From Candidatus Latescibacterota bacterium (GTDB lineage Bacteria; Latescibacterota; UBA2968; UBA8231): 64,000 nucleotides of DNA. Made by a program: the position numbers and the translations under genes. The DNA lies in assembly GCA_965206595.1 (NCBI GenBank), contig OZ242214.1, positions 2,080,001 through 2,144,000 of the forward strand. Reading direction: 5' to 3'. Shown one piece after another: positions 2,920 through 45,523 of this stretch. The stretch's first letter is position 1. Every line of letters starts with the position of its first letter. Under the pieces are notes generated by a model, which saw nothing but the letters and a program-made list of their open reading frames with translations, searched no databases and had not been told where the DNA came from.

Positions 2920-2920
2920 G

Positions 2921-7890: not shown

Positions 7891-9335
7891 GGCTCGTCAG
7901 TAGAATTCGTGGGTGAATTGTGGCTCGGGTAAATCGCCGAGCTGATGGAATGAAGCGATTTGGAGTGCCTTGAAGGTGCGGCATCCGAATGCTTTTCTCC
8001 CTGTCAGATTCCATTTCAGGTTCAAGCCCTCGACCATGCCGTTGTTGAACTGCTTCCTGGCCCTGAACCAATTGAGGATGAGCTCTTGGTGACGCCGCAG
8101 CATTCCGGCGATGTCTTTCATCGGTTCGATGTTGCTTCTCATCGTACGGAAACACCCGCGCTGGAGGAACTTCTCAGCCCACGCGGAGTAGGTGTAGTCC
8201 CAGAAGCGCTGGAAGTCCTCCTTGAGCAGGTAGGCTCTGACCGTCCGCAGGTTCATCTTCAATAGCTCCGACAGCTTCAAGCCTTGGGGGGGAGTCGCTG
8301 AGGTTCTCCTTGCGCTTCAGGAAGCACCAGCGGCTCTTGCTCAGGACCGGATCCTGGCCCTGTTCTTTGAGTCTGCGGGCCTCTTCGGCACGGACTTTGT
8401 CGAGGGCCTTGCTGAAGTGCTGCATGAGGTGAAAACGGTCGAGAATAGGTACCGCGGTGGGGAGCCGCTTGCTGATAACGTCGAGGTAGGCTTTCCAGAT
8501 ATCAGAGCAGATGACGGTAATCTGGTCGAGGAAACGGGTCGGCTCCTGCTCGCCGCCGGCTTCCTGCTTGCGCCGGTGCTCCTGCTCCCGTTCGGTAAAG
8601 CCGTCGTTCAAGGCCTTCTTCGTCCGCTTCTCGCCCATCCACAACAGGCGGCGGCGGTGGGGGTCGATCTGGTACAGCAACGTCAGATAATGAGGCCCCT
8701 TACGATACTGGATTTCATCCACGCCGAGGGCCGTGACCTGGTCGAGGCAGCGATGAGCGAGCCCATAGTCCACGACGTACTGGACGGAGTGGTAGACCTT
8801 GTCCCAACGGGTCCGGAAGGAACGCGCCACCTCGATCCACGACAGTTTTTTGGCCCCTGGGCCAGGAAGCAGCGGTAGAGGTCGGTCAGGTGGTGCTTGC
8901 CCGTGCTCCAGGGGACCTTCTCGACGACCACCCGGCCGCAGGCTTTGCAGGCAACCCGGCGCATGCGATACACCAGAAAGACCGGAAACCCCCAGAGGGG
9001 AACAAACTCGAACAGCCGGGCCTCGGGGGCCGTGTCATAGGTGGGGGCCAAGTGACCGCAGCCGCTGCACGCGCCCCGGGAGTTTTTCCGTGGCCTTATC
9101 CTCACCATTATCCTTCCGTGCCGGTCAAAATGACTGCCCTCAAACACAAACCGCTTGAAGGTCGTGCACCGGTTTAGTACCGTGATCAGGCGCATCGTTC
9201 CCTCCACAGGTAGTTGGGTTCCGTCTTGGTGGACTGTCCCAACATACCGGGGGATGATGCGCCTGGGCTACCTGGCCTCCTCTATTCCCATCGCCGCAGC
9301 CTCCCCTCCTCACCCACAGATTCTCCAGAGGAGCC
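7891..9335 (-). mobile_element. ISL3-family IS with frameshifted transposase (three ORF pieces)
   Basis: Imperfect IRs GGCTCGTCAGTAGAATTCGTGGGTG / GGCTCCTCTGGAGAATCTGTGGGTG; 8-bp TSD TTCTTTTC (7883-7890, 9336-9343); motifs CSGCG, LGVDEI, DRFH, EGLN. Confidence 0.92.
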
Positions 9336-9351
9336 TTCTTTTCTATCTCAG

Positions 9352-11211
9352 CCCTTGTTATTCATACAACCAGCGCATAAGCGGGCCTAGGCGCTTCCGA
9401 GACCCCACTGCATAGCCTCCAAGGCCTGCCTCCCTTCTATAGTTGCCTTTTTGGGTAGAGCCGTCCCCCTATCTCTACCGACCTTGTTGAAATTGTACGC
9501 GCCTCCGCGGAGACGCTTTCCTTGCGAGCCGATTACCCCCACCGACCCGGCCCGGGGTTACGCCATCCCCATATCCACGGGTCTGAGCGTGGCCAGGAAC
9601 CTCCACAGCCGGTCCCAGGGAGCCGCCATCCCTTGGGTCAGGATGACGCCCACCCTGCGTCCGTGCAAGGTGACGCGGGACGGCAGGCGCAGGTAGCGCC
9701 GTCGAAAGCTGTCCAGGCTCAGGGCCGTCGTCGAGCGTCCGTACTTGCGGGGCCGCCCGCGACGGGCCTCGGCGCGCTCGGCGACTTGACGGCCCAGGTG
9801 CAGCAGGTTGTAGGCCAGCAGGTTCAGGGTCAGGATCGCCTGGTTGGCGGCGAAGGCATCCCGGGACGGGGTGCGCTGACCCGGTGGACGACCGCGGTAG
9901 TGCTGTTTGCGCCGGGTGGTCGAGGAGAGCTGGGGCTGAAGGGTGGAGCTCAGCTCTCCGAGCATGCGCTCGAAGAGGCCGCGCTGACGGTAGAAGGCGA
10001 CCACGTCGCGGCCGCCCATCGTCTGGGGACTTTGGTCGGTGATCAGGAAAAAGTGGCGGGCGATGGGCAACTCCTCCGTCTCGGAGGGGACCCATACCAA
10101 TACCACCCGTCGGGGCTGCGCCCAGGACTTGGCTTGATAGCGCAGCTCGCGACAGCGAAAACCCTCTTCCCGCAACCGCTCCGGGTGCTGCGCCAGCTCC
10201 TGCTGATAGGCTTCCACCCAGGGACGAGCCAGCTCCTCCAGGCGCGCATTCTTCTTGATGCGCGACACGTACGAGGTGTTGTCCCGCGCTTCCAGCCGGC
10301 TCAGGAAGGGCCCGCTCACCGAGGCCGCGTCGAAGCGCAGGAGGACGCGGCCGGCCAGGTGCGACTGAATCCAGTCCAGGCGCTCCAGGATAGCCGCTTC
10401 GGCGCCCTCATGCGCGTGCACGTTGCCCGGCCGCAACACGGCGCCGAAGAAGTCGCCGGTCTGCGCCGAGCCGATGATCAGAGGATGGAACCCGGAGGCG
10501 TGGAAGTAGCCGTTGTACTCCACCCCCTGCTGGTGTCCGTGCACCGGCATCGGCAGGGCATCCATGTCGACGGCCAACTCCTCGTAGCGCAGCCGTCGTT
10601 CCAGCAACTGGCACCGGGACCCGGCGCTGCGCAGCACCGCTTCCTCCAACACCGCGCGGTTGCAGGCGCTGGAGGCTTGCCCGATCAGACGCGACAGCGT
10701 CGGCTGACTGGCCAGTCCCTGCGGCCGGCCTTCGTCGGCTGGGCGCAACGGCGACTGCCCTTTGCGATCGCTGACCGCCAGACGCAGGATCGGATCCTGC
10801 CGCAGCACGTCGGCGTCGGCGGCGTGGGGCAAGCCCTGCGCCATCAGCACGATCTGCGTGCGCAAAAGTTCCGACAGCGGGTGCGTGATCTGGTCCGGGC
10901 TACGGCGGTCCTCGAAGTGGGCATCCACCCAATCCAGAACCTGGCTGTGTTCAAGCAGTTGCCGCAACACCAGCGCACCGGGGTCGCCGCTGAGGTGAGT
11001 GGGGCGAGCTTCAATGTGAATGGAGCGGTTGAAAGACGGCTGAATCGGCCCGGCTTGCGGCGACGGGGTGGGGGACGGTAATTCACCCATTGGGTGTCCT
11101 CCTGTGTGGTTGGGTCAAAGGGTGATACTGCCTTGTGTTTCCCTCTGAAACCTAAGCATGGGAGGCACCCCAGTACAGCTCCTTTTACTGAAATTCCATG
11201 AATAACAAGGG
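9352..11211 (-). mobile_element. IS1380-family IS
   Basis: 14-bp IR CCCTTGTTATTCAT at both ends, flanked by near-direct CTCAG/ATCAG. Confidence 0.85.
9558..11090 (-). CDS. IS1380-family transposase (510 aa)
   Basis: DMDALPMPVHGHQQGVEYNGYF, FYRQRGLFE, AANQAILTLNLLAYNL. Confidence 0.88.
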   Translation of the reverse strand: MGELPSPTPSPQAGPIQPSFNRSIHIEARPTHLSGDPGALVLRQLLEHSQVLDWVDAHFEDRRSPDQITHPLSELLRTQIVLMAQGLPHAADADVLRQDPILRLAVSDRKGQSPLRPADEGRPQGLASQPTLSRLIGQASSACNRAVLEEAVLRSAGSRCQLLERRLRYEELAVDMDALPMPVHGHQQGVEYNGYFHASGFHPLIIGSAQTGDFFGAVLRPGNVHAHEGAEAAILERLDWIQSHLAGRVLLRFDAASVSGPFLSRLEARDNTSYVSRIKKNARLEELARPWVEAYQQELAQHPERLREEGFRCRELRYQAKSWAQPRRVVLVWVPSETEELPIARHFFLITDQSPQTMGGRDVVAFYRQRGLFERMLGELSSTLQPQLSSTTRRKQHYRGRPPGQRTPSRDAFAANQAILTLNLLAYNLLHLGRQVAERAEARRGRPRKYGRSTTALSLDSFRRRYLRLPSRVTLHGRRVGVILTQGMAAPWDRLWRFLATLRPVDMGMA

Positions 11212-11255
11212 ATCAGGGGCATCGGGAAGCCGGATCGCCCGGCTGGTTCCGCCTT

Positions 11256-11480
11256 TTGATGCAGCTCTCACGGGAGGAAAACAAAATGGGATACCTCGTC
11301 ACAGCAGTACTGGAGCCGCTTGTCGCCGCGATTCTCGACGACGCTGGATATGTCTCACCCCGCAGAACCCTGCCGATAGCATGGACCGGCGGCGCCCTGA
11401 TGGCCATGGCCGTCCTGCTCGGCAGTGCCAGCAGCGCGGATGCGCATTCGGGCAAACATGACATGGGTTCAGACTTGTAG
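11256..11480 (+). CDS. Small hypothetical protein
   Basis: ORF with GGAGG upstream of an internal ATG and a hydrophobic segment; no recognisable family. Confidence 0.25.
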   Translation: MMQLSREENKMGYLVTAVLEPLVAAILDDAGYVSPRRTLPIAWTGGALMAMAVLLGSASSADAHSGKHDMGSDL

Positions 11481-12743
11481 AACAAAATCGAATCCCAATG
11501 GCTGGTGCGCTTGGAGTTGCACGCTCATAGCAGGCCGTTGAAAAACCGGGGAATTCCGAAAAATCGAAAGGATTTTAGAATGTAGGGTGTGTTTTGCGGT
11601 TAAATGGACCATTGGAGCGATATTCCCATATATAGAAACGAGCTCGAAAAGGGTAACGAAAAAAGCTTCAAACAGCGGCGCATTCGGCTAAAGAACTCAA
11701 AAACCCTTTTTAAACGATCAGCGCAGGCCCCGAAACCCGATGCCAGCCCATGAAACCCCCTCGGGGTTCCGCTTCCGGTGAGCTTGCGCATGGCCAGGCC
11801 GAGATTGAAGGCGCCGCCATGAATACACAGGCGCTTGTAGAGGTTGGTGTGGCCGCGCAGGTGAGTGCGTCGCATACCCCCGGTTTCATAGGTAGGAGCA
11901 AAACTGCGTTCCGCAAACTCGGCGCGAAGCCGCTGCAGCCTCTTGCCTCGCTCTCCTCGAAGGCGCCGGCGATTCGCATACACCGCCGCCTTGGCCGGCG
12001 CATCCTTTTTCCAGTTTCGACGGCCGCGATCCGGTTCCGAAACGTAGCTGCGAATCTCGGCCTCCTTCAACGTCTTCATGGTGTGATTGCTGTGATAGCC
12101 CTTATCCGCCACCACTTCGCTGAGCGCCGTCTTCTCCTCGACAGGAACCTCTTGCAGAGTGCGATCGGCCTGGTCCAGACTCGCGGCCAGCGACTCGGTG
12201 TCCCCTTCATCGGCGCCACACACCTGGATGGCCACCAGCGCCTGGGTGTCCAGATCGACCGTATGCTCGGCCTTGTGAGCCAAATGAGTGCGTCCGTCTT
12301 TCATCTTGGTACTGCGGGCATCCGCATCATGAGGATGCTCCCAGTCCTTGTTGGACGCCTTGTTCGCACGCTTCTTGTCGAGCCGGGCCAGGTCCTGCTT
12401 CGTCGGCGTTTGGATCCCTTCTGCCCGGGCCAGCCCTTCCAGGTACTCGGGGTAGGCTTTGCCCGTGTCCCGGCGCACGATGCTGCGCATGGCGGCGTTG
12501 GCTTCCAGCGTGGTGGCGTCCACCGCCACCGTCTTGCCCTTCAGCAGGTCGTGGTCGACCAACACCTTCAGCACCCAGTCGAAGACCGCTTGGTGCACCT
12601 CCACCGGCAGGCGCCCGCGTAGGCGCGACAGACTCGAGTGCTCCGGGGGGGTTTCGCTCAAGGGGTAGCCCAGAAAGCGGCGCAGGGCCAGGGAATCGGC
12701 GACCCGCCAAGCGATGCCCCGCTCCGAGCCCAGCCCTTCGAAA

Positions 12744-14367
12744 GTAACCGTTCAGTTCCCCTGGCAGATTGGGGCCGGGGGGCGGAATGGTTGCGGGCTG
12801 ATATTAGCGAATGGGGGAGTGGGTTGAAGGCAGCAGCGAGGGCGCCGGCTGCTGAGACACGGCAGCGTCACAGGCCATCCTGAGATAGTCGAGGACGTTG
12901 CGCTGTTGCTGGCCCAGGGTATCGCGCACCGTGAGCAGGCGCTCTACGAAACGGCTGCCTTCGGCACTGTGGGTACCGAAGCTGGTGTGACGCCACAACA
13001 CGCCATGGCGAAGGGCTCGTTCGGCTTCGTTGTTGGTCGGCTCGACGCCTTCTCTGCGTGCGAAGGTCCACAGGGCCGGCCCGAGGTCGAGGAGATTGGC
13101 GCAGGTGGCCGCCGTCTTGGCGTCGGCGAACCGCTGCCCATAGCACAAATGAAAACGAAAGCGCAGACACAAATCGTCGATATAGTCCTGGAAGCGGGCG
13201 CGGGACAGGGTGCCGTCGCGGACTTGATGCCACCAGGTAAACAGCTGCTCGCTGCGGTCCAACAGGTGGTGACCGACGCGCTCGGCCTCTCCGCCCCGGG
13301 CCACGAACTCCTCGAAGGCGCGCCGCAGATGCGCCCAGCACACTTGCCGGCGTCGAAGCGGCAGATGCCCATAGGCCGAATAGCGATCGCAGCCGACCAC
13401 CGCCGTGTTATCCGCACCCAGCATCTCATCGACCCCGTCGCGTCCCCGGCTGGGGCGAATGGAGAATACGGTGACGCCCTCGGTCACCGCGGTCCACAAC
13501 CAGGCCTTGGCGCGGCCCTGGCGCCAGCCGGTCTCGTCGACGTTGACGAGGCCCTGTCGGCGAACGAAGGCGCGCGCCTCCTCGACCGCACCCGCCAGGG
13601 CCGCAGCCACCTCCTGTTCCAGCCGGCTGACCGTACCCAGCGACACCTCGAGGCCGAAGGCGTCGGACAACAGCGCCCGGATGTTGCGCTTGCTCAGCCG
13701 GTAGGCCCCGGCCAGCAGGCCGACCCAGGCCTGCACGCTGGGACCGAAGGTGTGCCGCGATACGCCCTCGGGCCAACCGGCTGCGGTCAGGCGGTCGCAG
13801 TGAGCGCAGCGCAGGGTGTGCAGCTGATACTCGATGACCTCGGCCCGCAGCGGCGGGAGGACGACTTCCTGGTGACGCTGCGGATGAGGATCGTCTCCCG
13901 TCAACGGGTGCCCGCATCCGTGGCACTGGCTGGGCTTGACCGGGATCCGTTCGTCCACCTGCTCCACCGATACCCACGAGCGGCCGGGTCCTTCGTGCCC
14001 GGGCTGTCCGCCCGGCGAGCGCCCCGAGGACCGGCGTCGGGAGGTGTCGGTGCGCGGCGAGGAGGAAGCGCCCGATTGCGACGAGGCGGCCCGGGCACCG
14101 CGGCGGGAGCGCCCTTTGCGGCGGGCCAATTCCCGCTCCAGCTCCCCGATGCGCGCCGTCTGTTGTTCCACGATCTGCTCAAGCTGGACAATGCGCTGGC
14201 GCAGGTCGCCTTCGGAAATCGTACTCTCAGGAGGTCTCTTCATGGGGTCGCCGTATCCAGGGAAATCTGCAACACACAACCGATCCCGAAGATACCGACG
14301 AACCCGAAAACCCGCTTAGGTATTTCTTTATATGCTCAAACTACTGCAGGGGGGACTGAACGGTTAC
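12744..14367 (-). mobile_element. IS66-family IS (single-ORF, ISBst12-like), copy 1
   Basis: IR GTAACCGTTCAGT(T)CCCC at both ends; 7-bp TSD TTCGAAA. Confidence 0.92.
12804..14279 (-). CDS. IS66-family transposase (start may be at 14243)
   Basis: GGQPGHEG, CHGCG zinc finger, VDETGW, QVCWAHLRR, PTNNEAERALR. Confidence 0.9.
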   Translation of the reverse strand: MCVADFPGYGDPMKRPPESTISEGDLRQRIVQLEQIVEQQTARIGELERELARRKGRSRRGARAASSQSGASSSPRTDTSRRRSSGRSPGGQPGHEGPGRSWVSVEQVDERIPVKPSQCHGCGHPLTGDDPHPQRHQEVVLPPLRAEVIEYQLHTLRCAHCDRLTAAGWPEGVSRHTFGPSVQAWVGLLAGAYRLSKRNIRALLSDAFGLEVSLGTVSRLEQEVAAALAGAVEEARAFVRRQGLVNVDETGWRQGRAKAWLWTAVTEGVTVFSIRPSRGRDGVDEMLGADNTAVVGCDRYSAYGHLPLRRRQVCWAHLRRAFEEFVARGGEAERVGHHLLDRSEQLFTWWHQVRDGTLSRARFQDYIDDLCLRFRFHLCYGQRFADAKTAATCANLLDLGPALWTFARREGVEPTNNEAERALRHGVLWRHTSFGTHSAEGSRFVERLLTVRDTLGQQQRNVLDYLRMACDAAVSQQPAPSLLPSTHSPIR

Positions 14368-17450: not shown

Positions 17451-17872
17451 TGGCGTGGAAACAGCGGCGGCACGATCCCCCGGGTGGAGTGGGCTTCGGC
17501 GCCCCGCAGGGCAGGGTCTGAACGGCCATCGGGAGGTTCTACTCGGCACTTGGGTGGTTGTTGCCGGCATTTTCTGGCCACGGCTCCGGGCCGGACCAAA
17601 GACCGCTGACCAGGGGGCGTCTTTCCGGGACGACGGGAGGAGCGGGCATTCCTACCTTACTCCACCAACGAAAGCCGGAAACATCCCTTTACTTGCCAGA
17701 TCAGAAACCAGGGCCTGCGACGGCGACCCCGCCTCGGGCCTGGAGTTAGGGCAGCTTCGGAGTCCGGCGCATTGCGTCCGTGTCGAGCCGGGATTCCGAG
17801 GCGCGAAAGTGCTGCGGGGAGCGCCCCCTCGGATGAAGCTTTCAACGAATCGCCCAAAGAAGGAGAGTTCCC

Positions 17873-18592
17873 GTGAGCCAACCTCTGAAAGACCAGGTCG
17901 CCGTCGTCGTGGGCGCCAGCAGCGGCATGGGGAAGCAGACCGCCCTGTCCCTGGCGCGGGCAGGGGCGAGCGTGGTGGCGGCGGCGCGCAGCGAGGACAG
18001 GCTGCGGGAGCTGGCAGCCGAAATCGGGACAGAAACCCTGGCGTTCCCGGCCGACGTCGAGGATCCGGCCTCGGTCGAGCGCCTGATCGCCGCGTCGGTC
18101 GAGCGCTTCGGCCGCATCGACCTCCTCGTCTACGCCACCGGAACCAACATTCCCGAGCGCGGCCTCGAGGTGCTCACCCCCGAGACCTGGGACATGATGG
18201 TGGCGACCAACCTCAGCGGGGCCTTCCACTGCACCCGGGCGGTGCTGCCGGTCATGCGCTCCCAGGGGTCGGGACTGATCCTCTACGTCGGCAGCGCCTG
18301 CGTGCAGATTCCCGATCTCTCCGGGGTCTCGTACCAGGCAGCGAAGCACGGCCTCGTCGGCCTGGCGCACGGCACCTTCCAGGAGGAGCGGGAGAACGGC
18401 ATTCGCACCACCGTCATCTTCCCCGGCCTGACGGACACGCCGCTGGTCGACAAGCGGCCGGCGCCGACCCCGCCGGAAGTGCTCGCCAAGGCCCTGCAGC
18501 CCGAAGACGTCGCCGCGGCCTGCCTGTTCGTCGCCTCGCTGCCGCCGCGGGCCCGGGTTCCCGAGCTGACGCTGATGCCGGCAGGACTCTGA
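17873..18592 (+). CDS. SDR family oxidoreductase
   Basis: VVGASSGMG, YQAAK catalytic motif. Confidence 0.9.
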   Translation: MSQPLKDQVAVVVGASSGMGKQTALSLARAGASVVAAARSEDRLRELAAEIGTETLAFPADVEDPASVERLIAASVERFGRIDLLVYATGTNIPERGLEVLTPETWDMMVATNLSGAFHCTRAVLPVMRSQGSGLILYVGSACVQIPDLSGVSYQAAKHGLVGLAHGTFQEERENGIRTTVIFPGLTDTPLVDKRPAPTPPEVLAKALQPEDVAAACLFVASLPPRARVPELTLMPAGL

Positions 18593-18618
18593 CCACGAAA
18601 GGAATCGAAAGGAATCCC

Positions 18619-19437
18619 ATGGCCATCGTGATGTTCACCAAGAGCGTCAAGGACCACACCGTTCCCCAGCTGATCGAGCTCGCCCACGAGCTCGGCCTCG
18701 AGGGGTACGACCTCTGCGTGCGTCCGGAGTACCCGATCAACCCGGACAACGCCGCCACCGAGCTTGTCGGCGCGGTGCGCGTCCTGGGCAGGGCCGGGCT
18801 TTCCGTCCCGATGGTCACCGGCAACTTCGACCTGCTGCTGCCCGACGACGAGACCGCCGAGCCGATCCTGGGGGCGATGGACGCCGCCAACGTGCGCCTG
18901 CTGAAGCTCGGCTACTTCAAGTTCGATCCGCTGTCGCAGGATTACTGGACCGAGGTCGACGGCATCCGAACCGCCTTCGACGGCTGGAGCCGGCTGGCGG
19001 AGAAGCACGGGGTCAAGGTCTGCTACCACACCCACTCGCGCGGCTGCATGGGACTCAACGCCGGCATGATGGCCCATCTCGTGCGCGACTTCGACCCGCG
19101 GCACATCGGGGTCTACCTCGACCCCTGCCACCTCGTCGTCGAAGGGGAGGAGTTCCCGACGGCGGCCGCCATCGTCGGGGAACACCTGTCGATCCTCGGC
19201 CTCAAGGACGCCCTGCTGGTGCGCGGGGAACGGAACGGCCACGGCAGCAAACAAGTGCGCTGGGTGGAGGCGGGCGGCGGCATGGTCGACTGGACCGGGG
19301 TCTTCGCCGAGCTGGACCGCCTCGGTTTCGACGGCCCCCTGTCCGTGCACTGCGAGTTCGAGATCCCCGAGGACGGGTACAGGGCCGCCCTCGAACGGGA
19401 GGTGGCGTTCTTCCGCGCCCGCGCCGCGGGGGCTTAA
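18619..19437 (+). CDS. Sugar phosphate isomerase/epimerase (xylose-isomerase-like TIM barrel)
   Basis: GYDLCVRP, YHTHS, YLDPCH, GLKD, SVHCEF. Confidence 0.82.
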   Translation: MAIVMFTKSVKDHTVPQLIELAHELGLEGYDLCVRPEYPINPDNAATELVGAVRVLGRAGLSVPMVTGNFDLLLPDDETAEPILGAMDAANVRLLKLGYFKFDPLSQDYWTEVDGIRTAFDGWSRLAEKHGVKVCYHTHSRGCMGLNAGMMAHLVRDFDPRHIGVYLDPCHLVVEGEEFPTAAAIVGEHLSILGLKDALLVRGERNGHGSKQVRWVEAGGGMVDWTGVFAELDRLGFDGPLSVHCEFEIPEDGYRAALEREVAFFRARAAGA

Positions 19438-21658: not shown

Positions 21659-22755
21659 CAGCGACCGAACTGGCAGCTGGGGTCTGGAGAGTCGACCTGG
21701 ACGGCGGCCGCCGCGTCGTCGCCAAGTGCCAGCCGTTTGCCGGCCTCACCCGGGGCCGGGCCGACGACCTGATCGCCGTCGAGCAGCGGGTTCTGACCCT
21801 GCTGAAGGAGCGGAATTGCCCGGTGCCGCAGGTCCTCGGCGCCGATCCGGACGCGGGCCTCATCTTCTTCGAGCACCTCGGGGAGGAGACCCTGGACGAT
21901 GCCTGCCGCGGCGCGGGACCCGGCCGCCTCGCGAGATTGCGGGAGCGGCTCGTCAGCGGATTCCTGCGGATAGAGCAGGCCTTCGCCGACTGCCGGCGGG
22001 AGCTGGCACCCCACATCTCCGCGGCGGCCTCCCGCGAGCGCCTCCCGGACGCTCTCACCCAGGCTCGAGACGGGGCTTGGGACGGAATGCACAGGCTCCT
22101 GCACCGGTGCGGGCAGGCCCCCGGGCCGGCTCTCGAAGATCTGCTCGTGGAGCTCTGCGAGCGGCTCGCCGGGGAGGAGCCGAGCCTCGGAAGCACCGAC
22201 TACAACGCCCGCAACGTCGTCGTCGACCGCGGCAGCGACGCGGTCGGTTTCATCGAGTTCGCCAAGATCGGCTGGGACTGGCCCGAGCGCCGGCTGGTGC
22301 AGTACGCCACCGGCCTGGGAGCGGACGCCGAAGGGGGCTTCGCCGGTCTCCTCGACCGCACCGCGGCCGGCCAGTACGCGAGCTCCGCCCCCGGAGACCG
22401 GGCCCGCAGGGGGTTCGCCCTCGACGGGCACCACCTGCTCTTCCACCTCAACGCGGCGGCCAGGCTCTGCGGCGCCCTGGATGGCCCCGGCCTGGAGCCG
22501 AACCGCACGCTCCTGGAAGTCTGGCGGCAGCCGAGGCTGCGCCTGCGCCAGCTCTGCGACGCCATCTCCTTCCCTCTCGGCGACGACTCCCTGGCCATCG
22601 GCTTCAGAAGGCAGTTCGCCCGTCTCCTGTCCCGGGAATGGACCGGACAGGATGCGGACGCCCAACGGGTCCGGGTAACCCGGAATGAAGAGGAACCAGT
22701 GAACGTACCGCCTGTTGTCACCCTCCCAACCCCTGATGCAGGAGCGCAACCATGA
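21655..22755 (+). CDS. Aminoglycoside phosphotransferase/kinase-like protein
   Basis: VVAK, PVPQVLG, FEHLG, degenerate STDYNARN and FIEF motifs; GTG overlaps the upstream stop. Confidence 0.65.
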   Translation: MTATELAAGVWRVDLDGGRRVVAKCQPFAGLTRGRADDLIAVEQRVLTLLKERNCPVPQVLGADPDAGLIFFEHLGEETLDDACRGAGPGRLARLRERLVSGFLRIEQAFADCRRELAPHISAAASRERLPDALTQARDGAWDGMHRLLHRCGQAPGPALEDLLVELCERLAGEEPSLGSTDYNARNVVVDRGSDAVGFIEFAKIGWDWPERRLVQYATGLGADAEGGFAGLLDRTAAGQYASSAPGDRARRGFALDGHHLLFHLNAAARLCGALDGPGLEPNRTLLEVWRQPRLRLRQLCDAISFPLGDDSLAIGFRRQFARLLSREWTGQDADAQRVRVTRNEEEPVNVPPVVTLPTPDAGAQP

Positions 22756-23030
22756 ACGAATCCGACAACCTCGACTTCAAACCCCGGGCCCGGGGGCTCG
22801 TGATCGGCGGCCTTCCCTGGCTCGCCCGCATAGCGGACAAGGCGCGCGCCTGGCACGGCGGGCGCATCGGCGACTACGTCTTCCCGTGAGCTGCCGACCA
22901 GCGCTTTCTGGAGGAAGCGGAGCTGAAGTCGGAGGAGTTCTCGGAGATGGTGCTGGCGAGCGCCGACGACGAGGAGTTGATCGCCAGCATGAAGGAACAC
23001 CTCGGGGGGCGGACCGTTAAGGGTCCCTGA
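22752..23030 (+). CDS. DUF5069-like protein with in-frame TGA (candidate selenoprotein, 92 aa)
   Basis: Manual translation MNESDNLDFKPRARGLVIGGLPWLARIADKARAWHGGRIGDYVFP*AADQRFLEEAELKSEEF..DDEELI; GGAG RBS; coupled to both neighbours; hairpin after the TGA. Confidence 0.7.
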
Positions 23031-23039
23031 CCGCCCGCC

Positions 23040-23837
23040 ATGCTCGAGGACCGGACAGCCGTCGTCACCGGGGCAGGCCAGGGGATCGGACTGGGCGTCG
23101 CCCGGGCCCTGGCCGCCCGGGGGGCGCGGGTGGTCATCGGCGAGCTGGTCCCGGAGCGCGGTGAAAAGGCCGCGGCCGGCATTATAGCGGAAGGGTACCG
23201 CGCCCGGTCGGTACCGCTCGACGTCAGCCTGCCGGAGTCCTGCTCGGCCCTGGTCGACACCGTGCTCGGGGAACACGGGCGTATCGACATCCTCGTCAAC
23301 TGCGCCGGCATCTTCACCGCCCACCGCTCGGAGGAGTTCCCCGAGGAGGACTGGCGGCGGCAGATCGACGTCCTGCTGAACGGGGTCTTCTTCACCACCC
23401 AGGAAGTGGTCCGCAAGGTCATGATTCCGCAGCAGTCCGGCAGCGTCGTCACCGTCGCCTCGATCGGCGGCATGGGCGGCTGGCCGATGCGGGCGGCCTA
23501 CAACGCCGCCAAGGCCGGGGTCATCGTGCTCAACGAGGTGCTGGCGACCGAGTGGGCCCGGCACGGCATCCGCCTCAACTGCGTCTCCCCCGGGGTCACC
23601 CGGACCGAAATGATCGAAAAGGCGATCGCCGCGGGCGCCTCTTCCATGGACCGCTACCGCAACCGCACCCCCCTCGGGCGGATCGCCGAGGTCGAGGAGA
23701 TCGCCAGCGCCGTCCTCTTCCTGGTATCGGACCGCGCCTCCTACATCACCGGGGAAAACCTGCGCGTCGACGGCGGCTGGGTCCCCTGGGGCAACCTCGA
23801 TGCCATCGGCTTTCCCGAAGATGCGGACCGTCCCTGA
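23040..23837 (+). CDS. SDR family oxidoreductase
   Basis: TGAGQGIG, VNCAG, YNAAK, VDGG. Confidence 0.92.
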   Translation: MLEDRTAVVTGAGQGIGLGVARALAARGARVVIGELVPERGEKAAAGIIAEGYRARSVPLDVSLPESCSALVDTVLGEHGRIDILVNCAGIFTAHRSEEFPEEDWRRQIDVLLNGVFFTTQEVVRKVMIPQQSGSVVTVASIGGMGGWPMRAAYNAAKAGVIVLNEVLATEWARHGIRLNCVSPGVTRTEMIEKAIAAGASSMDRYRNRTPLGRIAEVEEIASAVLFLVSDRASYITGENLRVDGGWVPWGNLDAIGFPEDADRP

Positions 23838-24594
23838 GTTCGCCGGCAGGACGGTGGTCGTCACCGGCGCCGGCGGCGGGCTCGGCTCGGACATGGCACA
23901 CCGCTTCGGCGAGGCCGGGGCTTTCGTGGTGGTCGCCGACATCGACGCGGCAGCCGGCCATGCTGTCGCAGAGCAGTTGCGCGGCGACGGCATCGAGGCC
24001 GTGTACCGCCGGCTCGACGTGCGCGATCCGGGTTCGAGCGCCGGCCTCGTCGAGGACGTGGCCGGCGAGCGCGGCGGTATCGACGTCTGGGTCAACAACG
24101 CCGGAGTCGCCCACAAGGGGCCGGCCGAAACCCTGCCGCAGGAGCAGTGGCGGGAAAGCATCGACGTGATGCTCTCGGGCGCCTTCTACTGCGCCCAGGC
24201 CGCGGCCCGCCCCATGCTGGAACAGGGCCGGGGCGTGATCGTCAACGTCGCTTCCATCATCGGCTGTTTCCCGATCGAGCAGCGCGTCGCCTACGGCACC
24301 GCCAAGGCGGGACTGATCGCCCTCACCGAAGCCCTGGGGATCGAGTGGGCGGACAGGGGTGTGCGCGTCGTCGGCGTCGCCCCCGCGGTGGTGATGACGG
24401 AGATGGTCCGCAAAGGTCTGGCCGAGGGCACGGCCACGGTCGCCGCGTACGAGCGCCGCACCCCGATGCGGCGGCTCGGCACCAAACGCGAGGTCTCCGA
24501 TGCCGTCCTCTACCTCGCCAGCGACGAGGCCTCGTTCATTACCGCCGAGACCCTGAAGATAGACGGGGGCTGGGGCGCTTATTCCTTCTTCTGA
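23821..24594 (+). CDS. SDR family oxidoreductase
   Basis: TGAGGGLG, VNNAG, YGTAK, IDGG. Confidence 0.92.
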   Translation: MRTVPEFAGRTVVVTGAGGGLGSDMAHRFGEAGAFVVVADIDAAAGHAVAEQLRGDGIEAVYRRLDVRDPGSSAGLVEDVAGERGGIDVWVNNAGVAHKGPAETLPQEQWRESIDVMLSGAFYCAQAAARPMLEQGRGVIVNVASIIGCFPIEQRVAYGTAKAGLIALTEALGIEWADRGVRVVGVAPAVVMTEMVRKGLAEGTATVAAYERRTPMRRLGTKREVSDAVLYLASDEASFITAETLKIDGGWGAYSFF

Positions 24595-24614
24595 CTTCTG
24601 AGAAAGGGTTCGTT

Positions 24615-25064
24615 TTGAAAGTAGCCGGAGCGGCGCACACGTCGTACACGGTTTCGGACCTGGCGCGGTCCAAGCAGTTCTACTGCGGCCTTCTCGGCTG
24701 CGAGGTCCTGTGGGAGCGGGAGATCGTCGAGACTTATTTCCGCGCCATCGTCGGTTTTCCCGATTGCGTGGTGAAGGCCGCTCAACTGCGCATTCCCGGA
24801 TCGGGCCACGTGCTCGAGCTGTTCGAATACGCGCATCCGCGCGCCGCCCCCGCGGTGCCGCCGGTCAACCGCCCTGGCAGCTCCCACATCGCCTTTCTGG
24901 TCGAAGACATCCACGCCGCTTGCGAAGAGCTCGGCGCCCGGGGGGTGGTCGTCCGCTCCGACCCGGTCGAAGTCGACTACGGAGCCAACAAGGGGGCCTG
25001 GGGGGTGTACATCGAAGACCCGGACGGCATCCCCATGGAGCTGTTCCAGCCCCCGCCCCGTTGA
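24615..25064 (+). CDS. VOC/glyoxalase family protein
   Basis: HTSYTVSDLARSKQFY..HIAFLVED..EDPDGIPMEL; TTG start. Confidence 0.85.
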   Translation: MKVAGAAHTSYTVSDLARSKQFYCGLLGCEVLWEREIVETYFRAIVGFPDCVVKAAQLRIPGSGHVLELFEYAHPRAAPAVPPVNRPGSSHIAFLVEDIHAACEELGARGVVVRSDPVEVDYGANKGAWGVYIEDPDGIPMELFQPPPR

Positions 25065-34573: not shown

Positions 34574-35676
34574 GTTTCAATCCGCTCCCCTCACCGAAGC
34601 GAGGGGAGATTTTGTGCCCTGGTACTTGTTTCAATCCGCTCCCCTCACCGAAGCGAGGGGAGATAGCCATGCGCAGCCTGTGGCGGGATGTGACCAGTTT
34701 CAATCCGCTCCCCTCACCGAAGCGAGGGGAGGGAGACAAGCGAGGCTGATCTCGACGCGAGAATGTTTCAATCCGCTCCCCTCACCGAAGCGAGGGGAGA
34801 TTTTCCGGCGGCGAAGCGGAGAAATCCCAACTTGAGCGGTTTCAATCCGCTCCCCTCACCGAAGCGAGGGGAGATCCGTTGACCCCCAGACTGGTGACGA
34901 TCGTAGCCAGGCTGTTTCAATCCGCTCCCCTCACCGAAGCGAGGGGAGATCCCCCGAGGCGGTCGGCGGGATCGATCTTTCTGTTTCAATCCGCTCCCCT
35001 CACCGAAGCGAGGGGAGATCCCGACCTCCTCGACGCTCGGGCCCCGACCTCCTAGCCGTTTCAATCCGCTCCCCTCACCGAAGCGAGGGGAGATATGCTC
35101 GGCTGGCGTAGCGATTCAGCTACTTCCGAACGTTTCAATCCGCTCCCCTCACCGAAGCGAGGGGAGATCCAGAAGGAAGGGGCCGAACTTCCTTGCCAAA
35201 CGAGGGGTTTCAATCCGCTCCCCTCACCGAAGCGAGGGGAGATTCCGCGCACCTGGGCGAGGCTTCGGCTTCCTGGTAGTTTCAATCCGCTCCCCTCACC
35301 GAAGCGAGGGGAGATCGATACCCTGGAGGTATTCGAGTATTTCTCCGGCGTTTCAATCCGCTCCCCTCACCGAAGCGAGGGGAGATCTGTCGTTTATGGC
35401 CACTTCAACCAACATCGGGAGCAGTTTCAATCCGCTCCCCTCACCGAAGCGAGGGGAGATGTAATGGGGTTCTGAAAATTTCCGGCCTTCTTGTAAGTTT
35501 CAATCCGCTCCCCTCACCGAAGCGAGGGGAGATCTTTCTCCGAAGGGAATGAACAAACGAAGGGGGAGTTTCAATCCGCTCCCCTCACCGAAGCGAGGGG
35601 AGATTCTGGAATCCAAGAACGGGCTGCAAATCCCAGCTTGTTTCAATCCGCTCCCCTCACCGAAGCGAGGGGAGAT
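34574..35676 (-). CRISPR. CRISPR array, 16 repeats / 15 spacers; 37-bp repeat ATCTCCCCTCGCTTCGGTGAGGGGAGCGGATTGAAAC (transcribed strand)
   Basis: Repeats start at 34574, 34628, 34697, 34765, 34839, 34914, 34983, 35058, 35132, 35207, 35279, 35350, 35424, 35497, 35568, 35640; spacers 31-38 bp except one of 17 bp; hairpin with TTCG loop and ATTGAAAC end. Confidence 0.98.
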
Positions 35677-36198: not shown

Positions 36199-37260
36199 CT
36201 ACTTCGAGATGAATGGGATGTAGTCGGAGATGTCGCCGCGAAGTGTTCGGGCCAACAGCCTGGCTTGAACACTGAACACTTGCCCGATACGAATATTCTG
36301 CTTGAACAGGGGGTGCTTTACTTCTGCTTGCTTGCGCCGTTGCCAAGCCTCGATGACCTCCTTCCTTCCCCGGTCGGTGAATTCTACGGCGCCGCCTTCT
36401 CGTTCGCGAAAGTGCTTGGACTCGATCTGCCGACGATTGACGAGGGTCAATGCCAGTCGCTCTGCCAGACAGGGCCGAAACTCTTCCATCAGGTCGAGGG
36501 CGCAGGCGGGCCTCCCGGCGCGCGTCGCATGAAGCCAGCCGACGTATGGGTCAAGCCCCGAGGTCGTCAGCGCGGCGAGGCAATCGTGGCGGAGCAGAGC
36601 ATAGATGAAGGAGAGCAGGCAGTTTATCCGATCCCGGGGCGGACGCCGCGTGCGGGTTACGAACCTGAAATCTTCGCGCTGTTGTTTGAGCATGCATCGG
36701 AACACCGAGAAATACGCCTTGGCGCCCAGGCCCTCCATGCCCCTGATCGGGTCGAGCGCTTCCCGTAGCCCGCAATCTGGGGCAACGGGCGGGGCATTGC
36801 CGAGTTGGTGAATCAGTTGGGCAAGTTCATCAGCCGCGCCCGTCAATGCCTTGCGATCCGCATCGCCATCGGTTTCCCGGCCGGAGCGCAAGAGGTTGGA
36901 GCGTGCGTTTTGCATTTTCCCCGCGACGAACTGCCGGGCGATGCGAGTCGCGTCCCGCGGGCTGTCCGCTGCGGCATACTGAGCACGCCGCAGCAAGTAG
37001 CGGGTGTCTCCACTTCCCAAGACTTGCGCCAAGAGGTAGCCGTTCTCGGTGTGGTAATGCACCGCCACCTGATGATCCCAGCACAGGGCCATGGCCGGCG
37101 GCGTAACCACGACCTGCCCGAACGCGCAAATACTTTCCAGATGGTGAATCGGCACGGTCAGGCGGGTTTGTTTTTCGATCTCGACCCGGAGTGTCAAGTG
37201 ATCCCTGAGCACCACGGTTTTCGGTGTCGTCAAGTAAAGAGTGTTTTGGATAACGGCCAT
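36199..37260 (-). CDS. cas1: Type I-C Cas1
   Basis: NTLYLTT, PIHHLESI, GMEG..A..YF, RRPPRDRINCLLSFIY, LDLMEEFR. Confidence 0.97.
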   Translation of the reverse strand: MAVIQNTLYLTTPKTVVLRDHLTLRVEIEKQTRLTVPIHHLESICAFGQVVVTPPAMALCWDHQVAVHYHTENGYLLAQVLGSGDTRYLLRRAQYAAADSPRDATRIARQFVAGKMQNARSNLLRSGRETDGDADRKALTGAADELAQLIHQLGNAPPVAPDCGLREALDPIRGMEGLGAKAYFSVFRCMLKQQREDFRFVTRTRRPPRDRINCLLSFIYALLRHDCLAALTTSGLDPYVGWLHATRAGRPACALDLMEEFRPCLAERLALTLVNRRQIESKHFREREGGAVEFTDRGRKEVIEAWQRRKQAEVKHPLFKQNIRIGQVFSVQARLLARTLRGDISDYIPFISK

Positions 37261-37293
37261 GTTTTATCTCCCATTATCGAAGCAAGTGGGGAC
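37261..37293 (-). repeat. Degenerate CRISPR repeat abutting the cas1 start codon
   Basis: GTTTTATCTCCCATTATCGAAGCAAGTGGGGAC: 19/26 identity over the hairpin part plus a GTTT end, with a 4-nt deletion. Confidence 0.65.
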
Positions 37294-37321
37294 CTCGCTT
37301 CGCACCGAGAGCCGGACGAGT

Positions 37322-38023
37322 CTATTCGGTAGTATCGAACACTGCCCGATAGGCTCGCCCCAGCGTGGGCGGAGCGCTGGTGATTTCGGGAAGGCAATGG
37401 TCGAAAAGCGAGCACTCCGAACATTGGGGCTTGTGGACGGCTTGGGGGACCACTTCCCCTTCGATCAGTCGGTGCATGGCTTCGATGGCCTGTTCGGTGA
37501 GGCGGCGCAAATCCTCGGTAAATTCCACCTCTCGGCGGCGCTTGCTCTTGGCGTGGAAGATCGCCCCCTTGGGAATGTCTAGTCCGAACATTTCTTCGAG
37601 GCACAACGCTTGCGCGCAAAGCTGGGCGTCGTCGTTGTCGAACTTGCGGCGTTTGCCCTTTTTGTATTCAACTGGATAGAGACTGTTGATATTCTCAGGC
37701 GAAAATCGGGATTTTTTTAGCTTTGAGTAGCTTTTGAATTTCACCTCAACAATATCACACTTTCCAGAAAGGCCCAGCCTTTGGGACCACACCGGCAATG
37801 CCCGAAGCACTTCTGTATCTGCCGCTTTCTCATACCCTGGCACATCGGCCTGTTCATGAAATTGACTGCCGATCAGTGTGTGCTCGTTATCGGCAAAGGT
37901 GCCCTCGACATGAATCAATGCCGCCCGCCGAGGGCAATAGAGGTACTGGTTGATAGCGGAGAGCGGAATGATCCGCCCCTCGCTATCGAATGGGTGGACC
38001 GGCTGGATAACCAATTCACTCAT
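37322..38023 (-). CDS. cas4: Cas4 (RecB-like nuclease, Fe-S)
   Basis: YLYCPRR, GKCDIVE, PVEYKKG, QLCAQALCLEEM, CSECSLFDHC. Confidence 0.97.
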   Translation of the reverse strand: MSELVIQPVHPFDSEGRIIPLSAINQYLYCPRRAALIHVEGTFADNEHTLIGSQFHEQADVPGYEKAADTEVLRALPVWSQRLGLSGKCDIVEVKFKSYSKLKKSRFSPENINSLYPVEYKKGKRRKFDNDDAQLCAQALCLEEMFGLDIPKGAIFHAKSKRRREVEFTEDLRRLTEQAIEAMHRLIEGEVVPQAVHKPQCSECSLFDHCLPEITSAPPTLGRAYRAVFDTTE

Positions 38024-38059
38024 GTTTCAATCCGCTCCCCTGCCGAATTGAGAGGAAGC
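38024..38059 (-). repeat. Degenerate CRISPR repeat abutting the cas4 start codon
   Basis: GTTTCAATCCGCTCCCCT (18 nt) identical to the array repeat; about 29/37 overall. Confidence 0.9.
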
Positions 38060-38072
38060 ATATACGTGCAGT

Positions 38073-39026
38073 TCACTCATGACGCCTGTGTAGGAGAACG
38101 CCAGCGGGCACATCGGCACTGTCCCACCCACATCCAACCTCATAATCGGCGAAGGATTCGGGGAATTCCGCGCCATCCTTCAGTTTCACCTCGATTCCCT
38201 CAAAGAGCTTGTGGGCATGGGCACAGCCGAGACGGGCTTCGCGTTTGTTTTGTTCGGCGTTGTTTTCATGTTGGGTGCCGACATGCTCAAAGTCGTAAAT
38301 ACCTCGCACTACCATTTCACCGCGGGCAGCGGAGCGATCATGCTCGAACATGTGGTTGAGCGCATCGAAAAGGATTTCGAGGTCGGCGTTGGTGAAACCG
38401 GTGCGCTCGGCGAAAGCAGGCGAGACGTAAACCTTGGCTGCGTAGAGAGCGTATGGGACGATGTGCTTATTGCCCATGGTACGTTCTTTGTCGGCATCTT
38501 CCTCTTTGGTGACGGCTCCACGGGTGATGGAGATTTCCAATGGCGTGATCGGATGGTACGACTGGCCAAAGGTGAACTGTACCGGGCCACGCACTTGGCC
38601 CCAAGCAGAGCCTTTCATGATGTCGTCGCCCACGGAAAGCACACCACCAAAGGCGCGAATATCAAAGAACTCGCGACACAGCCATTTCATGGCCACTTCT
38701 TGCTTTTGGTCTTTAGAAGCACCAGAATCCAAACTCTCGCCACTTTTCTTAACGGCGGTTGCGATTTCGTTGCCAAGAATAGCACCTTGCCTGACGAATA
38801 GGTTGAAGCCATTGCCATTGTCGCTAGCACGCTCGGGTGGGAACGTTTCCACGAAGTTGCGCACCTTGCGCTTGAGGCACACGTCGGAGACGATTCCCCG
38901 ATTGGTGTTGTGGTCTTGGCGCGGCATGTTACCAGCATCGGGATCGCCATTGGGATTTCCGTTGGTGACCTCGAAGAGCAGCAAAATATCATGCCGATTG
39001 GTGAGAATGTCGTTGTTTTGACTCAC
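38073..39026 (-). CDS. cas7: Type I-C Cas7 (Csd2)
   Basis: NGNPNGDPDAGNMPR, SDVCLKRKVRN, FFDIRAFG, VRGPVQ, TMGNKH.VPYALY, FEHDRSAARG. Confidence 0.97.
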   Translation of the reverse strand: MSQNNDILTNRHDILLLFEVTNGNPNGDPDAGNMPRQDHNTNRGIVSDVCLKRKVRNFVETFPPERASDNGNGFNLFVRQGAILGNEIATAVKKSGESLDSGASKDQKQEVAMKWLCREFFDIRAFGGVLSVGDDIMKGSAWGQVRGPVQFTFGQSYHPITPLEISITRGAVTKEEDADKERTMGNKHIVPYALYAAKVYVSPAFAERTGFTNADLEILFDALNHMFEHDRSAARGEMVVRGIYDFEHVGTQHENNAEQNKREARLGCAHAHKLFEGIEVKLKDGAEFPESFADYEVGCGWDSADVPAGVLLHRRHE

Positions 39027-39049
39027 GATGATTTCCTTTCTGTGGAGGA

Positions 39050-39463
39050 TTATTGGTTGCTTCCCTTTTTTTCTTTTGCTGCCTCGCGGGCGACGCGATC
39101 AGCGGCTTTTTGCTGATAAAAGCCGAGGGCAAAACGCCCCTGCGCGTGCAAATCCAGTGTACGGGGGAATGGGTAGATTTTAGTTGACACTTCTTGAATA
39201 GCCTCGTCTAAGAAGCGGTCATGTCCTTTGTACTTATCGGATTTGCGGATATTGTTGAGATGGTGGCGGTTGAGCTTGAGGAGGACGGGGAACACCGAGG
39301 CTGGCGAAGCCATGGCAGTACCAAAATAACGCTCGACGACTCCGGCCCCTTCGAGCTGATAATCATGTGCCTTGGCTTGGGTCTCGGCGAGTACAGCGAG
39401 TAGGCGTCCGCATTGATAGGCGGCATCTTTCGCTTTTGCGTCCTGTTGTTCAGTAATTTCCAT
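39050..39463 (-). CDS. cas11c: Probable internally translated Cas11c small subunit (137 aa)
   Basis: In-frame ATG at 39463 (MEITEQ..) preceded by AAGGAAAG; internal Cas11 translation from cas8c is established for type I-C. Confidence 0.7.
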   Translation of the reverse strand: MEITEQQDAKAKDAAYQCGRLLAVLAETQAKAHDYQLEGAGVVERYFGTAMASPASVFPVLLKLNRHHLNNIRKSDKYKGHDRFLDEAIQEVSTKIYPFPRTLDLHAQGRFALGFYQQKAADRVAREAAKEKKGSNQ

Positions 39464-40897
39464 AGTGCTTTCCTTTCGGTTCCGATTGAGAATGAGCTTC
39501 GCCAAGGCGAACCGTGAATGGTTCAACAATGCCGTGCTTCCATCGCGTGCCATATCAACGCGCAGGCGGTTCAACATGGGATGCAAAAGAGCAAGCGAGG
39601 GCGCAGTCCCTTCCAGCGCGGTACGAAACAACTGAGCGGTCACTTCCGTCTGCAAATCTTTTGCGTCGCGTACTGTAGTGCAAGCTAATCGGAACAGGGC
39701 TAGTGGCGGCATCTTTTCTTTGCCGGTGGGCAGGCGCACCGGCTCCAGATCGAGATCGTGGAACCAGCGCCGCAGGTTTTCCGTGGCGGTTTCCAGCGTA
39801 GTCTGCATCCAGTGGCGCACAACAATCCGCCCGCTGTTGCCTGCGAGAGTGACTGCATGGAATTGTTCCTGCCTCAGTGCCTCGCGTTCCCGGCCAGCCC
39901 ACGGAGACTTCAGGAAATCCGCCACTGCTTTGGGGTCGGCTTGGTTGAGTAAAGCCCCAAAAGTGCTGGTGGCGTCCGTTTCATTCCGGGTCCAAAAACA
40001 GCACGATGCTTGCCCTAAGCGGATAGAATGATCGTCGTGGCTAAGCATGGCATTAAGCGCGGTGCAATAGGCGGTGGCCGCCCGGGTGGAAGTAGAAGCG
40101 TTGAGACTTTGCTCAAAACCGTAGGAGGCGAAGGCATCCTTATCAAACGAGACAATCGCCGCGCCAAAGGCTTGGGTGTTGGGTACGCTTTGGATTTTGG
40201 GGTTGTGGGTCAGCGCAATAGGCTGATCGATCTCCCCGGTGACCAAGCAGAGTCCGTGAGGTGCATCCGCCTCGTGGTCTTCATTTTCCTTCTCGAATTG
40301 GCTCCGCCAAAAGGGCCGGATGCGAGTTTCATCCTCCAGCAGCAATTGTTCCTCCACACGGAATGAGAAGTTGTCCGGCCCCATTTTAACCTCTTCCCCA
40401 TCGGCTTTGGTGATCCACCAAGCAGGTTTCTCCCTAGACTTGGCGTCGGAACTGATACCCCAGCGCAAAAAAGATGGCATCTGCCCCGGTTCTGGCTTGA
40501 AGGCTAACAGAGTCTTGAGCGTAGGGCTGAGTGTTTTCTCATGGGCCTGTTCAATCTGTGCCCAAAAGTCATTGTACTTACGGAGGTTGTTCTCATTCCG
40601 GTTCTTCCGCTTCTTTTCGGACATAGGTTGTTCCGGATTTGTGTCCAATCCGAATACAGCCGTAATGCCGTCCGCCATGAACTCGGCCACCCCGCCAGCC
40701 ACCTTGGGCCGAGTTGTCTGTGGGCAATCGAACTCCTTGCCCCGGTTCCTTTCCCCCTCGGTTTCCACCGGTCCCTGCCCCACGAGATTGCCCATCGTGT
40801 CCAAAGTAATGATCCATCGCACCGCCTTGGGTTTGAAAGCTAGGTTATCGAGCAGGTTGCGAGAGTTCGCAAAATCGTTCAAATGTTGCAGCAGCAT
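39050..40897 (-). CDS. cas8c: Type I-C Cas8c (Csd1)
   Basis: CLVTGE, IVSFDKDAFASYG, NSGRIVVR, YQCGRLLAVL, QGRFALGFYQQ. Confidence 0.95.
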   Translation of the reverse strand: MLLQHLNDFANSRNLLDNLAFKPKAVRWIITLDTMGNLVGQGPVETEGERNRGKEFDCPQTTRPKVAGGVAEFMADGITAVFGLDTNPEQPMSEKKRKNRNENNLRKYNDFWAQIEQAHEKTLSPTLKTLLAFKPEPGQMPSFLRWGISSDAKSREKPAWWITKADGEEVKMGPDNFSFRVEEQLLLEDETRIRPFWRSQFEKENEDHEADAPHGLCLVTGEIDQPIALTHNPKIQSVPNTQAFGAAIVSFDKDAFASYGFEQSLNASTSTRAATAYCTALNAMLSHDDHSIRLGQASCCFWTRNETDATSTFGALLNQADPKAVADFLKSPWAGREREALRQEQFHAVTLAGNSGRIVVRHWMQTTLETATENLRRWFHDLDLEPVRLPTGKEKMPPLALFRLACTTVRDAKDLQTEVTAQLFRTALEGTAPSLALLHPMLNRLRVDMARDGSTALLNHSRFALAKLILNRNRKESTMEITEQQDAKAKDAAYQCGRLLAVLAETQAKAHDYQLEGAGVVERYFGTAMASPASVFPVLLKLNRHHLNNIRKSDKYKGHDRFLDEAIQEVSTKIYPFPRTLDLHAQGRFALGFYQQKAADRVAREAAKEKKGSNQ

Positions 40898-40899
40898 TA

Positions 40900-41703: not shown

Positions 41704-41716
41704 TTCGATCCCCGAA

Positions 41717-45522: not shown

Positions 45523-45523
45523 T

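Follow-up and report, generated by a model that had tools for sequence, protein, structure and literature searches.

The DUF5069 reading frame and its in-frame UGA

A 64,000-nucleotide stretch from the genome of a Candidatus Latescibacterota bacterium (contig OZ242214.1; the whole stretch is referred to below as the window) contains an open reading frame (ORF) of the DUF5069 protein family that is interrupted by a TGA codon. The earlier note on this DNA, made from the sequence alone, had proposed that the ORF is a hidden selenoprotein gene, in which the UGA encodes selenocysteine (Sec) and is followed by a hairpin resembling a selenocysteine insertion sequence (SECIS). The features of the locus are listed in Table 1. 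The gene begins with the ATG at 22752, which overlaps the stop codon of the upstream ORF as ATGA (22752-22755), and the SDR gene downstream begins at 23040. The in-frame TGA is preceded by ...GRIGDYVFP and followed by AADQRFLEE..., and the frame then runs for 46 more codons to the stop. All that the note had said about the frame, its TGA, the 46 further codons and its placement between neighbouring genes agreed with the sequence.

Table 1. Coordinates of the putative selenoprotein gene, its sequence elements and its conserved upstream neighbours in the window.
Feature	Position	Strand	Details
Putative DUF5069 selenoprotein gene	22752..23030	+	92 codons including Sec46, then the terminal TGA stop; by translation
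In-frame UGA, codon 46, predicted to be read as selenocysteine	22887..22889	+	TGA in 59 of 74 related loci
Terminal stop codon (TGA), DUF5069 gene	23028..23030	+	Direct reading
Shine-Dalgarno-like AGGAG	22740..22744	+	7 nt ahead of the ATG; direct reading, Shine-Dalgarno role presumed
Putative SECIS core hairpin	22902..22919	+	7-bp stem CGCUUUC / GGAAGCG, UGGA loop
Small conserved gene, 124 aa	21284..21658	+	No Pfam family; first of a conserved three-gene unit; homologues in the corresponding position at 54 of 75 loci, window included
APH-fold kinase-like gene, ~366 aa	21655..22755	+	Start uncertain; Pfam APH PF01636

Since the source genome has a G+C content of ~70%, long open frames are cheap in it. 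The window taken alone is weak evidence for Sec and does not decide the question. The observation rises above chance because a Pfam match crosses the TGA and because of the comparison with relatives.

The 92-residue read-through product matched the Pfam family DUF5069 (PF16798) with an E-value of 8.6e-16 and a score of 58.7 bits (gathering threshold 27). The match was a single one, covering residues 11-85 and crossing the TGA. Only profile positions 4-78 of 133 were covered, so the window protein is a short form of DUF5069; no NCBIfam model matched it. Among 165 domains taken from the best 150 family representatives (50%-identity library), Y42 was present in 136, P45 in 91 and D49 in 140. Position 46 was occupied by Cys in 109 of these domains, by Ser in 24, Gly in 4, His in 3 and Ala in 2, with a gap in 15 truncated ones. 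The motif Y-x-x-(P)-C-x-x-D, which the note had given for the family, is thus correct. Around the site under study the motif reads G-D-Y-x-[FY]-P-U-x-x-D (U, Sec). Tandem arrays of 2 to 10 domain copies occurred in 22 of the best 150 representatives, for example P0163 (891 aa, 10 stretches) and P0112 (1072 aa, 6 stretches).

A phmmer comparison aligned the window protein with the DUF5069 structure 3omd_A (E = 8e-9), which has Cys at the aligned site in the motif Y-x-Y-x-C-P-x-D. The AlphaFold2 (AF2) model of the window protein, with a mean predicted local distance difference test score (pLDDT) of 83.2, showed one domain containing both halves around position 46. Foldseek matched this model to 3omd_A with E = 2.3e-4, a template modelling score (TM) of 0.78 and a root-mean-square deviation of 1.1 Å over 76 columns, and returned no other PDB match at E < 1. 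The modelled protein is small and all-helical, with four helices, and Sec46 is placed in the loop just before helix 47-55.

Codon 46 and the hairpin among relatives

A scan of one genome per species yielded 74 related loci, or 75 counting the window. The aligned codon was TGA in 59 of the 74, TGC in 10, TGT in 4 and TCT in 1. The TCT locus (L074) is a weak match and a doubtful homologue, and the putative Sec form is the majority state, at 59 of 73 informative loci. According to their record labels, the TGA forms belong to Latescibacterota (37), Gemmatimonadota (13), Poribacteria (2), Planctomycetota (1) and Pseudomonadota (1), with 5 unclassified, and several of them sit on complete chromosomes. 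The earlier note had taken absence of TGA from all relatives as a sign of a nonsense mutation; these counts answer that point in the negative.

Database searches gave a matching picture. At similar length, four full-length homologues were found (87-90 aa, 63-67% identical), all four with Cys at column 46, together with one 60-aa protein ending in ...YVYP. Among shorter proteins, 19 clusters (18 of 45 aa and one of 44 aa; 69-91% identical) all ended in [FY]P right before column 46, which brings the clusters that stop exactly before codon 46 to 20 in total. Some of the truncated proteins come from contigs of up to 1 Mb, and for two of them the NCBI name is that of a Latescibacteria hypothetical protein. 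Likewise, 13 of the best 150 family representatives end exactly at residue 45. The databases hold the TGA forms only as fragments cut at the TGA. The TGA is aligned to a conserved Cys, as the note had expected, with Cys in 14 of the 74 loci, in the four full-length homologues, in 3omd_A and in 109 of the 165 family domains.

A phylogenetic tree was built from 73 rows with the position-46 column masked, leaving out L074 as doubtful and L065 as cut by a contig end. One clade (support 80/83) united 55 Sec rows down to ~50% identity, which indicates long-term retention of the TGA as the sequences diverged; a further two Sec groups, both small, were found. The Sec/Cys label needs at least 4 changes on the tree, and the well-supported branches force at least 2. 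The closest relative of the window gene is L001 (92%). At L005 (6136-6189), the locus resembles a recent Sec-to-Cys conversion.

The frame and hairpin analyses were carried out on 59 TGA forms, here the window plus 58 loci. Within 37 codons after the TGA, an in-frame stop was found in none of the 59, compared with 55 and 35 of the 59 in the other two frames. Synonymous changes made up 63% of codon differences upstream and 61% at codons 47-49, versus 9% at the hairpin codons 50-56.

In the window, the hairpin consists of CGCTTTC (22902-22908), TGGA (22909-22912) and GGAAGCG (22913-22919). Its stem begins 12 nt and its loop 19 nt past the UGA, with G at loop position 2; sequence, loop distance and loop G are as the note had described. 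The outer CAG/CTG pair that the note had added is also present in the window, but it is not conserved, with 59% of cells paired among the TGA forms. Covariation was assessed in an ungapped alignment of the 59 TGA forms, which comprise 49 distinct sequences. The 7-bp core helix was paired in 95.9% of cells among the distinct sequences, with compensating states at pair 17-32 (GU 24, AU 13, GC 10) and pair 18-31 (CG 45, GC 4). The covariation score was 0.160 compared with 0.104 in shuffled alignments (reached in 0 of 500 shuffles), and it was at most 0.041 when the partner strand was slid.

The stem differed between the two forms of the gene. All seven pairs were formed in 46 of the 59 TGA forms, six in 12 and five in one, with a mean of −7.8 kcal/mol. 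Of the 14 Cys forms, one had the complete stem, and their mean was +1.4 kcal/mol. The 12-mer TTCCTGGAGGAA occurred in 51 of 59 TGA forms and in none of the 14 Cys forms, though both encode F-L-E/x-E. These alignments mark the hairpin as an RNA element that is conserved together with the TGA.

The published bacterial SECIS (bSECIS) model (PMC13188914, Fig. 2 legend) has a loop of 3-9 nt, an upper stem of 4-16 bp, a G in the first two loop positions and a spacing of 16-37 nt between UGA and loop. The geometry of the window hairpin (4-nt loop, 7-bp stem, 19-nt spacing) lies within this model. An Rfam scan of 22600-23200 at E ≤ 10 returned three chance-level matches and no SECIS family. A scripted search of the window and the 74 loci for other ORFs with a TGA and hairpin gave 19 candidates besides DUF5069, which were rejected as all resembling out-of-frame junk.

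Gene neighbourhood and other features of the window

The note had placed the gene in an SDR/VOC/isomerase operon. This assignment was not supported: the downstream SDR, VOC and xylose-isomerase-like genes are common only to the window and its two closest relatives, L001 and L002. By comparison across the loci, the conserved partners are the upstream kinase-like gene and the small gene, not the downstream SDR/VOC genes. Counting the window, 58 of 75 loci have the kinase-like gene (typically ~345 aa) directly upstream of the DUF5069 gene, and in 39 of those 58 its stop has the same offset as the ATGA overlap in the window. At its other end, the GTG start candidate at 21655 overlaps the stop of the small gene. 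Both upstream genes accompany Sec as well as Cys forms. They are missing in L066-L073, and in L025 and L057 the upstream flank is too short to judge the neighbours.

The small protein had no Pfam match, and the atlas gave a weak PA-IL lead, present in 17% of one cluster's members. The kinase-like protein matched Pfam APH (PF01636) marginally, with E = 3.9e-5 and 24.0 bits against a cut-off of 23.2, and its L061 orthologue had no Pfam APH match at E ≤ 1. Its AF2 model (pLDDT 90.1) was matched by Foldseek to corramycin phosphotransferase, PsiK, a putative APH, ethanolamine kinase and macrolide phosphotransferases (E ~1e-6, TM ~0.55, probability 1.00). Lys24, Glu43, Asp182 and Asn187 were invariant across 50 sequences. 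Source annotations name the gene 'hypothetical protein' or 'phosphotransferase'. A complex prediction for kinase P0211 (the L006 kinase) with the Cys-form DUF5069 protein P0004 gave a score of 0.01 and a mark of 0.32, which carries no weight either way on binding.

On the downstream side, L013 and ~40 other loci share conserved genes 0.1-3.7 kb beyond DUF5069, including an ArgC-like semialdehyde dehydrogenase and a TatD-family hydrolase. This set belongs to a large Latescibacterota/Gemmatimonadota group; in the window, SDR, VOC and TIM-barrel genes are found there instead.

Farther from the locus, the minus strand of the window carries a CRISPR (clustered regularly interspaced short palindromic repeats) array with a 37-nt repeat unit and a period of ~72-75, beside a type I-C-like cas operon (34627-35676 and 36199-43933). 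The operon genes by Pfam are Cas1, Cas4, Cas7, Csd1, Cas5d and Cas3. The G+C content of this region is ~54-58% compared with ~69% around the DUF5069 gene, which suggests an acquired island. Many transposase genes are present at 8174-14315, 46641-50348 and 60717-63633. Among them are two minus-strand IS66-family ORFs of 503 aa (12804-14315 and 48837-50348), ISL3 copies, of which one is partial, DDE_Tnp_1_4, IS4/5 and a fragment of IS1595 that covers only the last 52 profile positions.

Several other ORFs carry partial domains. In the 660-aa ORF at 17455-19437, a TIM-barrel domain was found only at residues 407-647, and in the 305-aa ORF at 24147-25064, a VOC domain only at residues 163-299. In tblastn searches with the latter, L001 and L002 matched different parts of the query (residues 23-228 and 157-304, respectively). 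The isochorismatase match of the ORF at 44749-45540 covers only profile positions 1-53 of 175. These three ORFs may represent mis-called starts, frameshifts or decayed genes.

Interpretation and comparison with known systems

Taken together, these data favour, with a probability of about 0.88, the reading that 22752-23030 is an intact gene for a 92-residue DUF5069 selenoprotein. The seemingly broken gene is very probably a real selenoprotein gene, since dozens of related bacteria have retained this stop codon along with the hairpin, at a site where others have Cys. The core proposal of the note is thus borne out by the distribution of TGA (59 of 74 loci) and Cys (14 of 74), by a covarying hairpin in the TGA forms that is intact in 1 of 14 Cys forms, and by a frame that stays open downstream. 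By analogy with the established bacterial mechanism, the hairpin within the ORF would recruit SelB with Sec-tRNA(Sec) to the ribosome, and the UGA at 22887-22889 would be decoded as selenocysteine. The second TGA, at 23028, is without such a hairpin and would terminate translation.

Several results weigh against this reading. Position 46 is Ser in 24 of the 165 family domains, so the fold does not strictly depend on this residue. The core hairpin of the window has a computed energy of −7.0 kcal/mol, short of the −7.5 limit of the bSECIS model. For the 60 nt that follow the UGA, the computed fold has −22.3 kcal/mol (z = −0.77), which 49 of 200 shuffled sequences match. Under a strict script, 122 of the 1462 TGA triplets in the window (8.3%) precede a perfect bSECIS-like hairpin at −7.5 kcal/mol or lower. 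The overall minimum free energy of the 51 nt after the codon is similar in the two forms (Sec −16.3, Cys −17.1) and was dropped as a discriminator, since it does not differ between them. Scans of the 64-kb window found no tRNA and no selA, selB or selD domain, and the 12-kb flanks of the 59 Sec-form loci likewise contained no tRNA, although such small stretches are not evidence of absence. In addition, the kinase-like gene is missing in L066-L069 and in one Sec clade (L011, L016, L017, L038, L050 and L053). The small gene is likewise missing in that clade, which has an upstream 650-aa ORF without a Pfam family.

As a separate observation, a class V aminotransferase (a fold family of the cysteine desulfurase / selenocysteine lyase type; Pfam E = 5.2e-73) lies at 1717-3081 on the minus strand of the window, with no demonstrated link to the selenoprotein.

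The strongest rival, though an improbable one, is that the UGA is passed without Sec, by a near-cognate Trp, Cys or Arg tRNA with help from the hairpin, or that translation terminates and restarts, or that the 45-residue peptide is itself the product. Hairpins 3' of stop codons can stimulate read-through in other systems, and no Sec machinery was found in the scans of the window (selA, selB, selD, tRNA) and of the Sec-form flanks (tRNA). Yet the residue aligned with the UGA in relatives is Cys, which is the signature of Sec, and loop, stem and spacing fit the bSECIS model. No ATG or GTG stands in frame immediately past the TGA, where the next Met is codon 66, and a single structural domain takes in both halves.

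Less probable still is a nonsense mutation or sequencing error, with the gene being a pseudogene of this genome like the decayed genes and transposases nearby. The region is indeed rich in transposases, several local ORFs have partial domains only, and the window hairpin alone is statistically unremarkable. However, 59 of the 74 independent species-level genomes, complete chromosomes among them, carry this TGA at the corresponding codon, the frame stays open past the TGA in all 59 forms analysed, the hairpin is conserved, and the 20 database clusters and 13 of 150 representatives are cut exactly at this codon. A genome-wide reassignment of UGA to a sense codon is the least credible explanation, as nothing beyond the in-frame TGA itself speaks for it and TGA terminates the upstream gene (22753-22755), this gene (23028-23030), 10 of the 59 Sec-form genes and 9 of the 14 Cys-form genes.

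For the putative selenoprotein, the note had suggested a redox or metal-binding role. Beyond the Sec site, no Cys was found in 53 of the 59 Sec forms (the window protein has none at all), and Cys70 was present in 6. A redox protein of the thioredoxin-fold or UxxC/CxxU type was ruled out by this lack of a partner Cys in 53 of 59, by the all-helical model and by the absence of a thioredoxin-like match in the PDB search. As the sole Cys-like residue, Sec46 is predicted most likely to act as a lone nucleophile and not within a CxxC-type pair; a redox-active selenol is one possibility, and a role in accepting or carrying a group is another.

The DUF5069 gene closes a conserved, translationally coupled three-gene unit, after the genes for the small ~125-aa protein and the APH-fold kinase-like protein. 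The selenoprotein may work with the kinase-like enzyme or on its product, which is the least certain step of the proposal. A more specific idea, which we regard as speculative and rather unlikely, is that DUF5069 is a new small carrier/acceptor domain whose single Sec/Cys/Ser nucleophile at the start of helix 2 is modified by, or trades a group with, the kinase-like enzyme, for example through a protein-bound Se-phosphoryl or Se-linked intermediate. Such a role would account at once for why Cys, Sec and Ser interchange at one site, why no partner Cys is present, why some relatives carry 2-10 domains in tandem and why the gene is so tightly coupled to that of the kinase-like enzyme. If true, it would point to a selenium-dependent pathway specific to Latescibacterota and Gemmatimonadota.

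If the selenoprotein assignment is true, the prokaryotic selenoproteome would gain a family whose fold is all-helical and not of the thioredoxin type, and whose Sec stands alone. It would also imply wide use of Sec in two poorly studied phyla, Latescibacterota and Gemmatimonadota, with Sec as the majority state in this subfamily. The gene would be mis-annotated across public databases as a 45-residue hypothetical protein, so that annotators would gain a concrete correction as well as a highly conserved SECIS on which to build a model. The link to the kinase-like gene would provide the first testable functional context for DUF5069, a structural-genomics orphan represented by 3OMD.

Among known systems, the nearest structure is PDB 3OMD, a DUF5069 protein of Leptospirillum rubarum. 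It shares the domain and the site motif of the window protein, but it has Cys in place of Sec, is 145 rather than 92 residues long and has no function attached. The neighbouring enzyme resembles APH / choline-kinase-type kinases (PF01636) in its fold, its catalytic-loop D-x-x-x-x-N and its invariant N-lobe Lys and Glu. It differs from them in a Pfam score barely over the cut-off, in a TM of only ~0.55 to the best structures and in an F-[IL]-E-F motif that, by alignment reading and not superposition, seems to replace DFG/IDF. With the E. coli fdhF-type SECIS and the bSECIS consensus, the window element shares an in-ORF hairpin just after the UGA and a small apical loop, here with G-G at positions 2-3; its sequence is unrelated to that of fdhF and has no Rfam match. 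A bulged U like that of the fdhF element has no evident counterpart in the window hairpin.

In the literature searched, no mention of DUF5069 or PF16798 was found. A 2026 review gives domain identifiers for 119 prokaryotic selenoprotein families or subfamilies (PMC13188914, Table 1), and PF16798 is absent from these 119, BSepDB and the bioRxiv supplements being outside the search. The GOS study lists the hypothetical selenoproteins GOS_A to GOS_C (PMC2398784). The GOS_A sequence is unrelated to DUF5069, and neither WLARI nor KPRARG, both motifs searched for, occurs in either of two supplement files of that study. The deep-Sep report describes nine other new selenoprotein families (PMC12013277).

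The predicted families GOS_A to GOS_C, DUF523, DUF1858 and DUF3179 share with the present case a UGA aligned to Cys and TGA homologues in several organisms (PMC2398784, PMC12013277, PMC13188914). In them, too, the UGA is immediately followed by a stem-loop whose small apical loop contains G, and database entries are truncated at the UGA. In contrast to them, DUF5069 is not inventoried, has Sec as its majority state and shows no UxxC/CxxU partner Cys. On this basis, DUF5069 would constitute a new selenoprotein family within a well-known kind of system.

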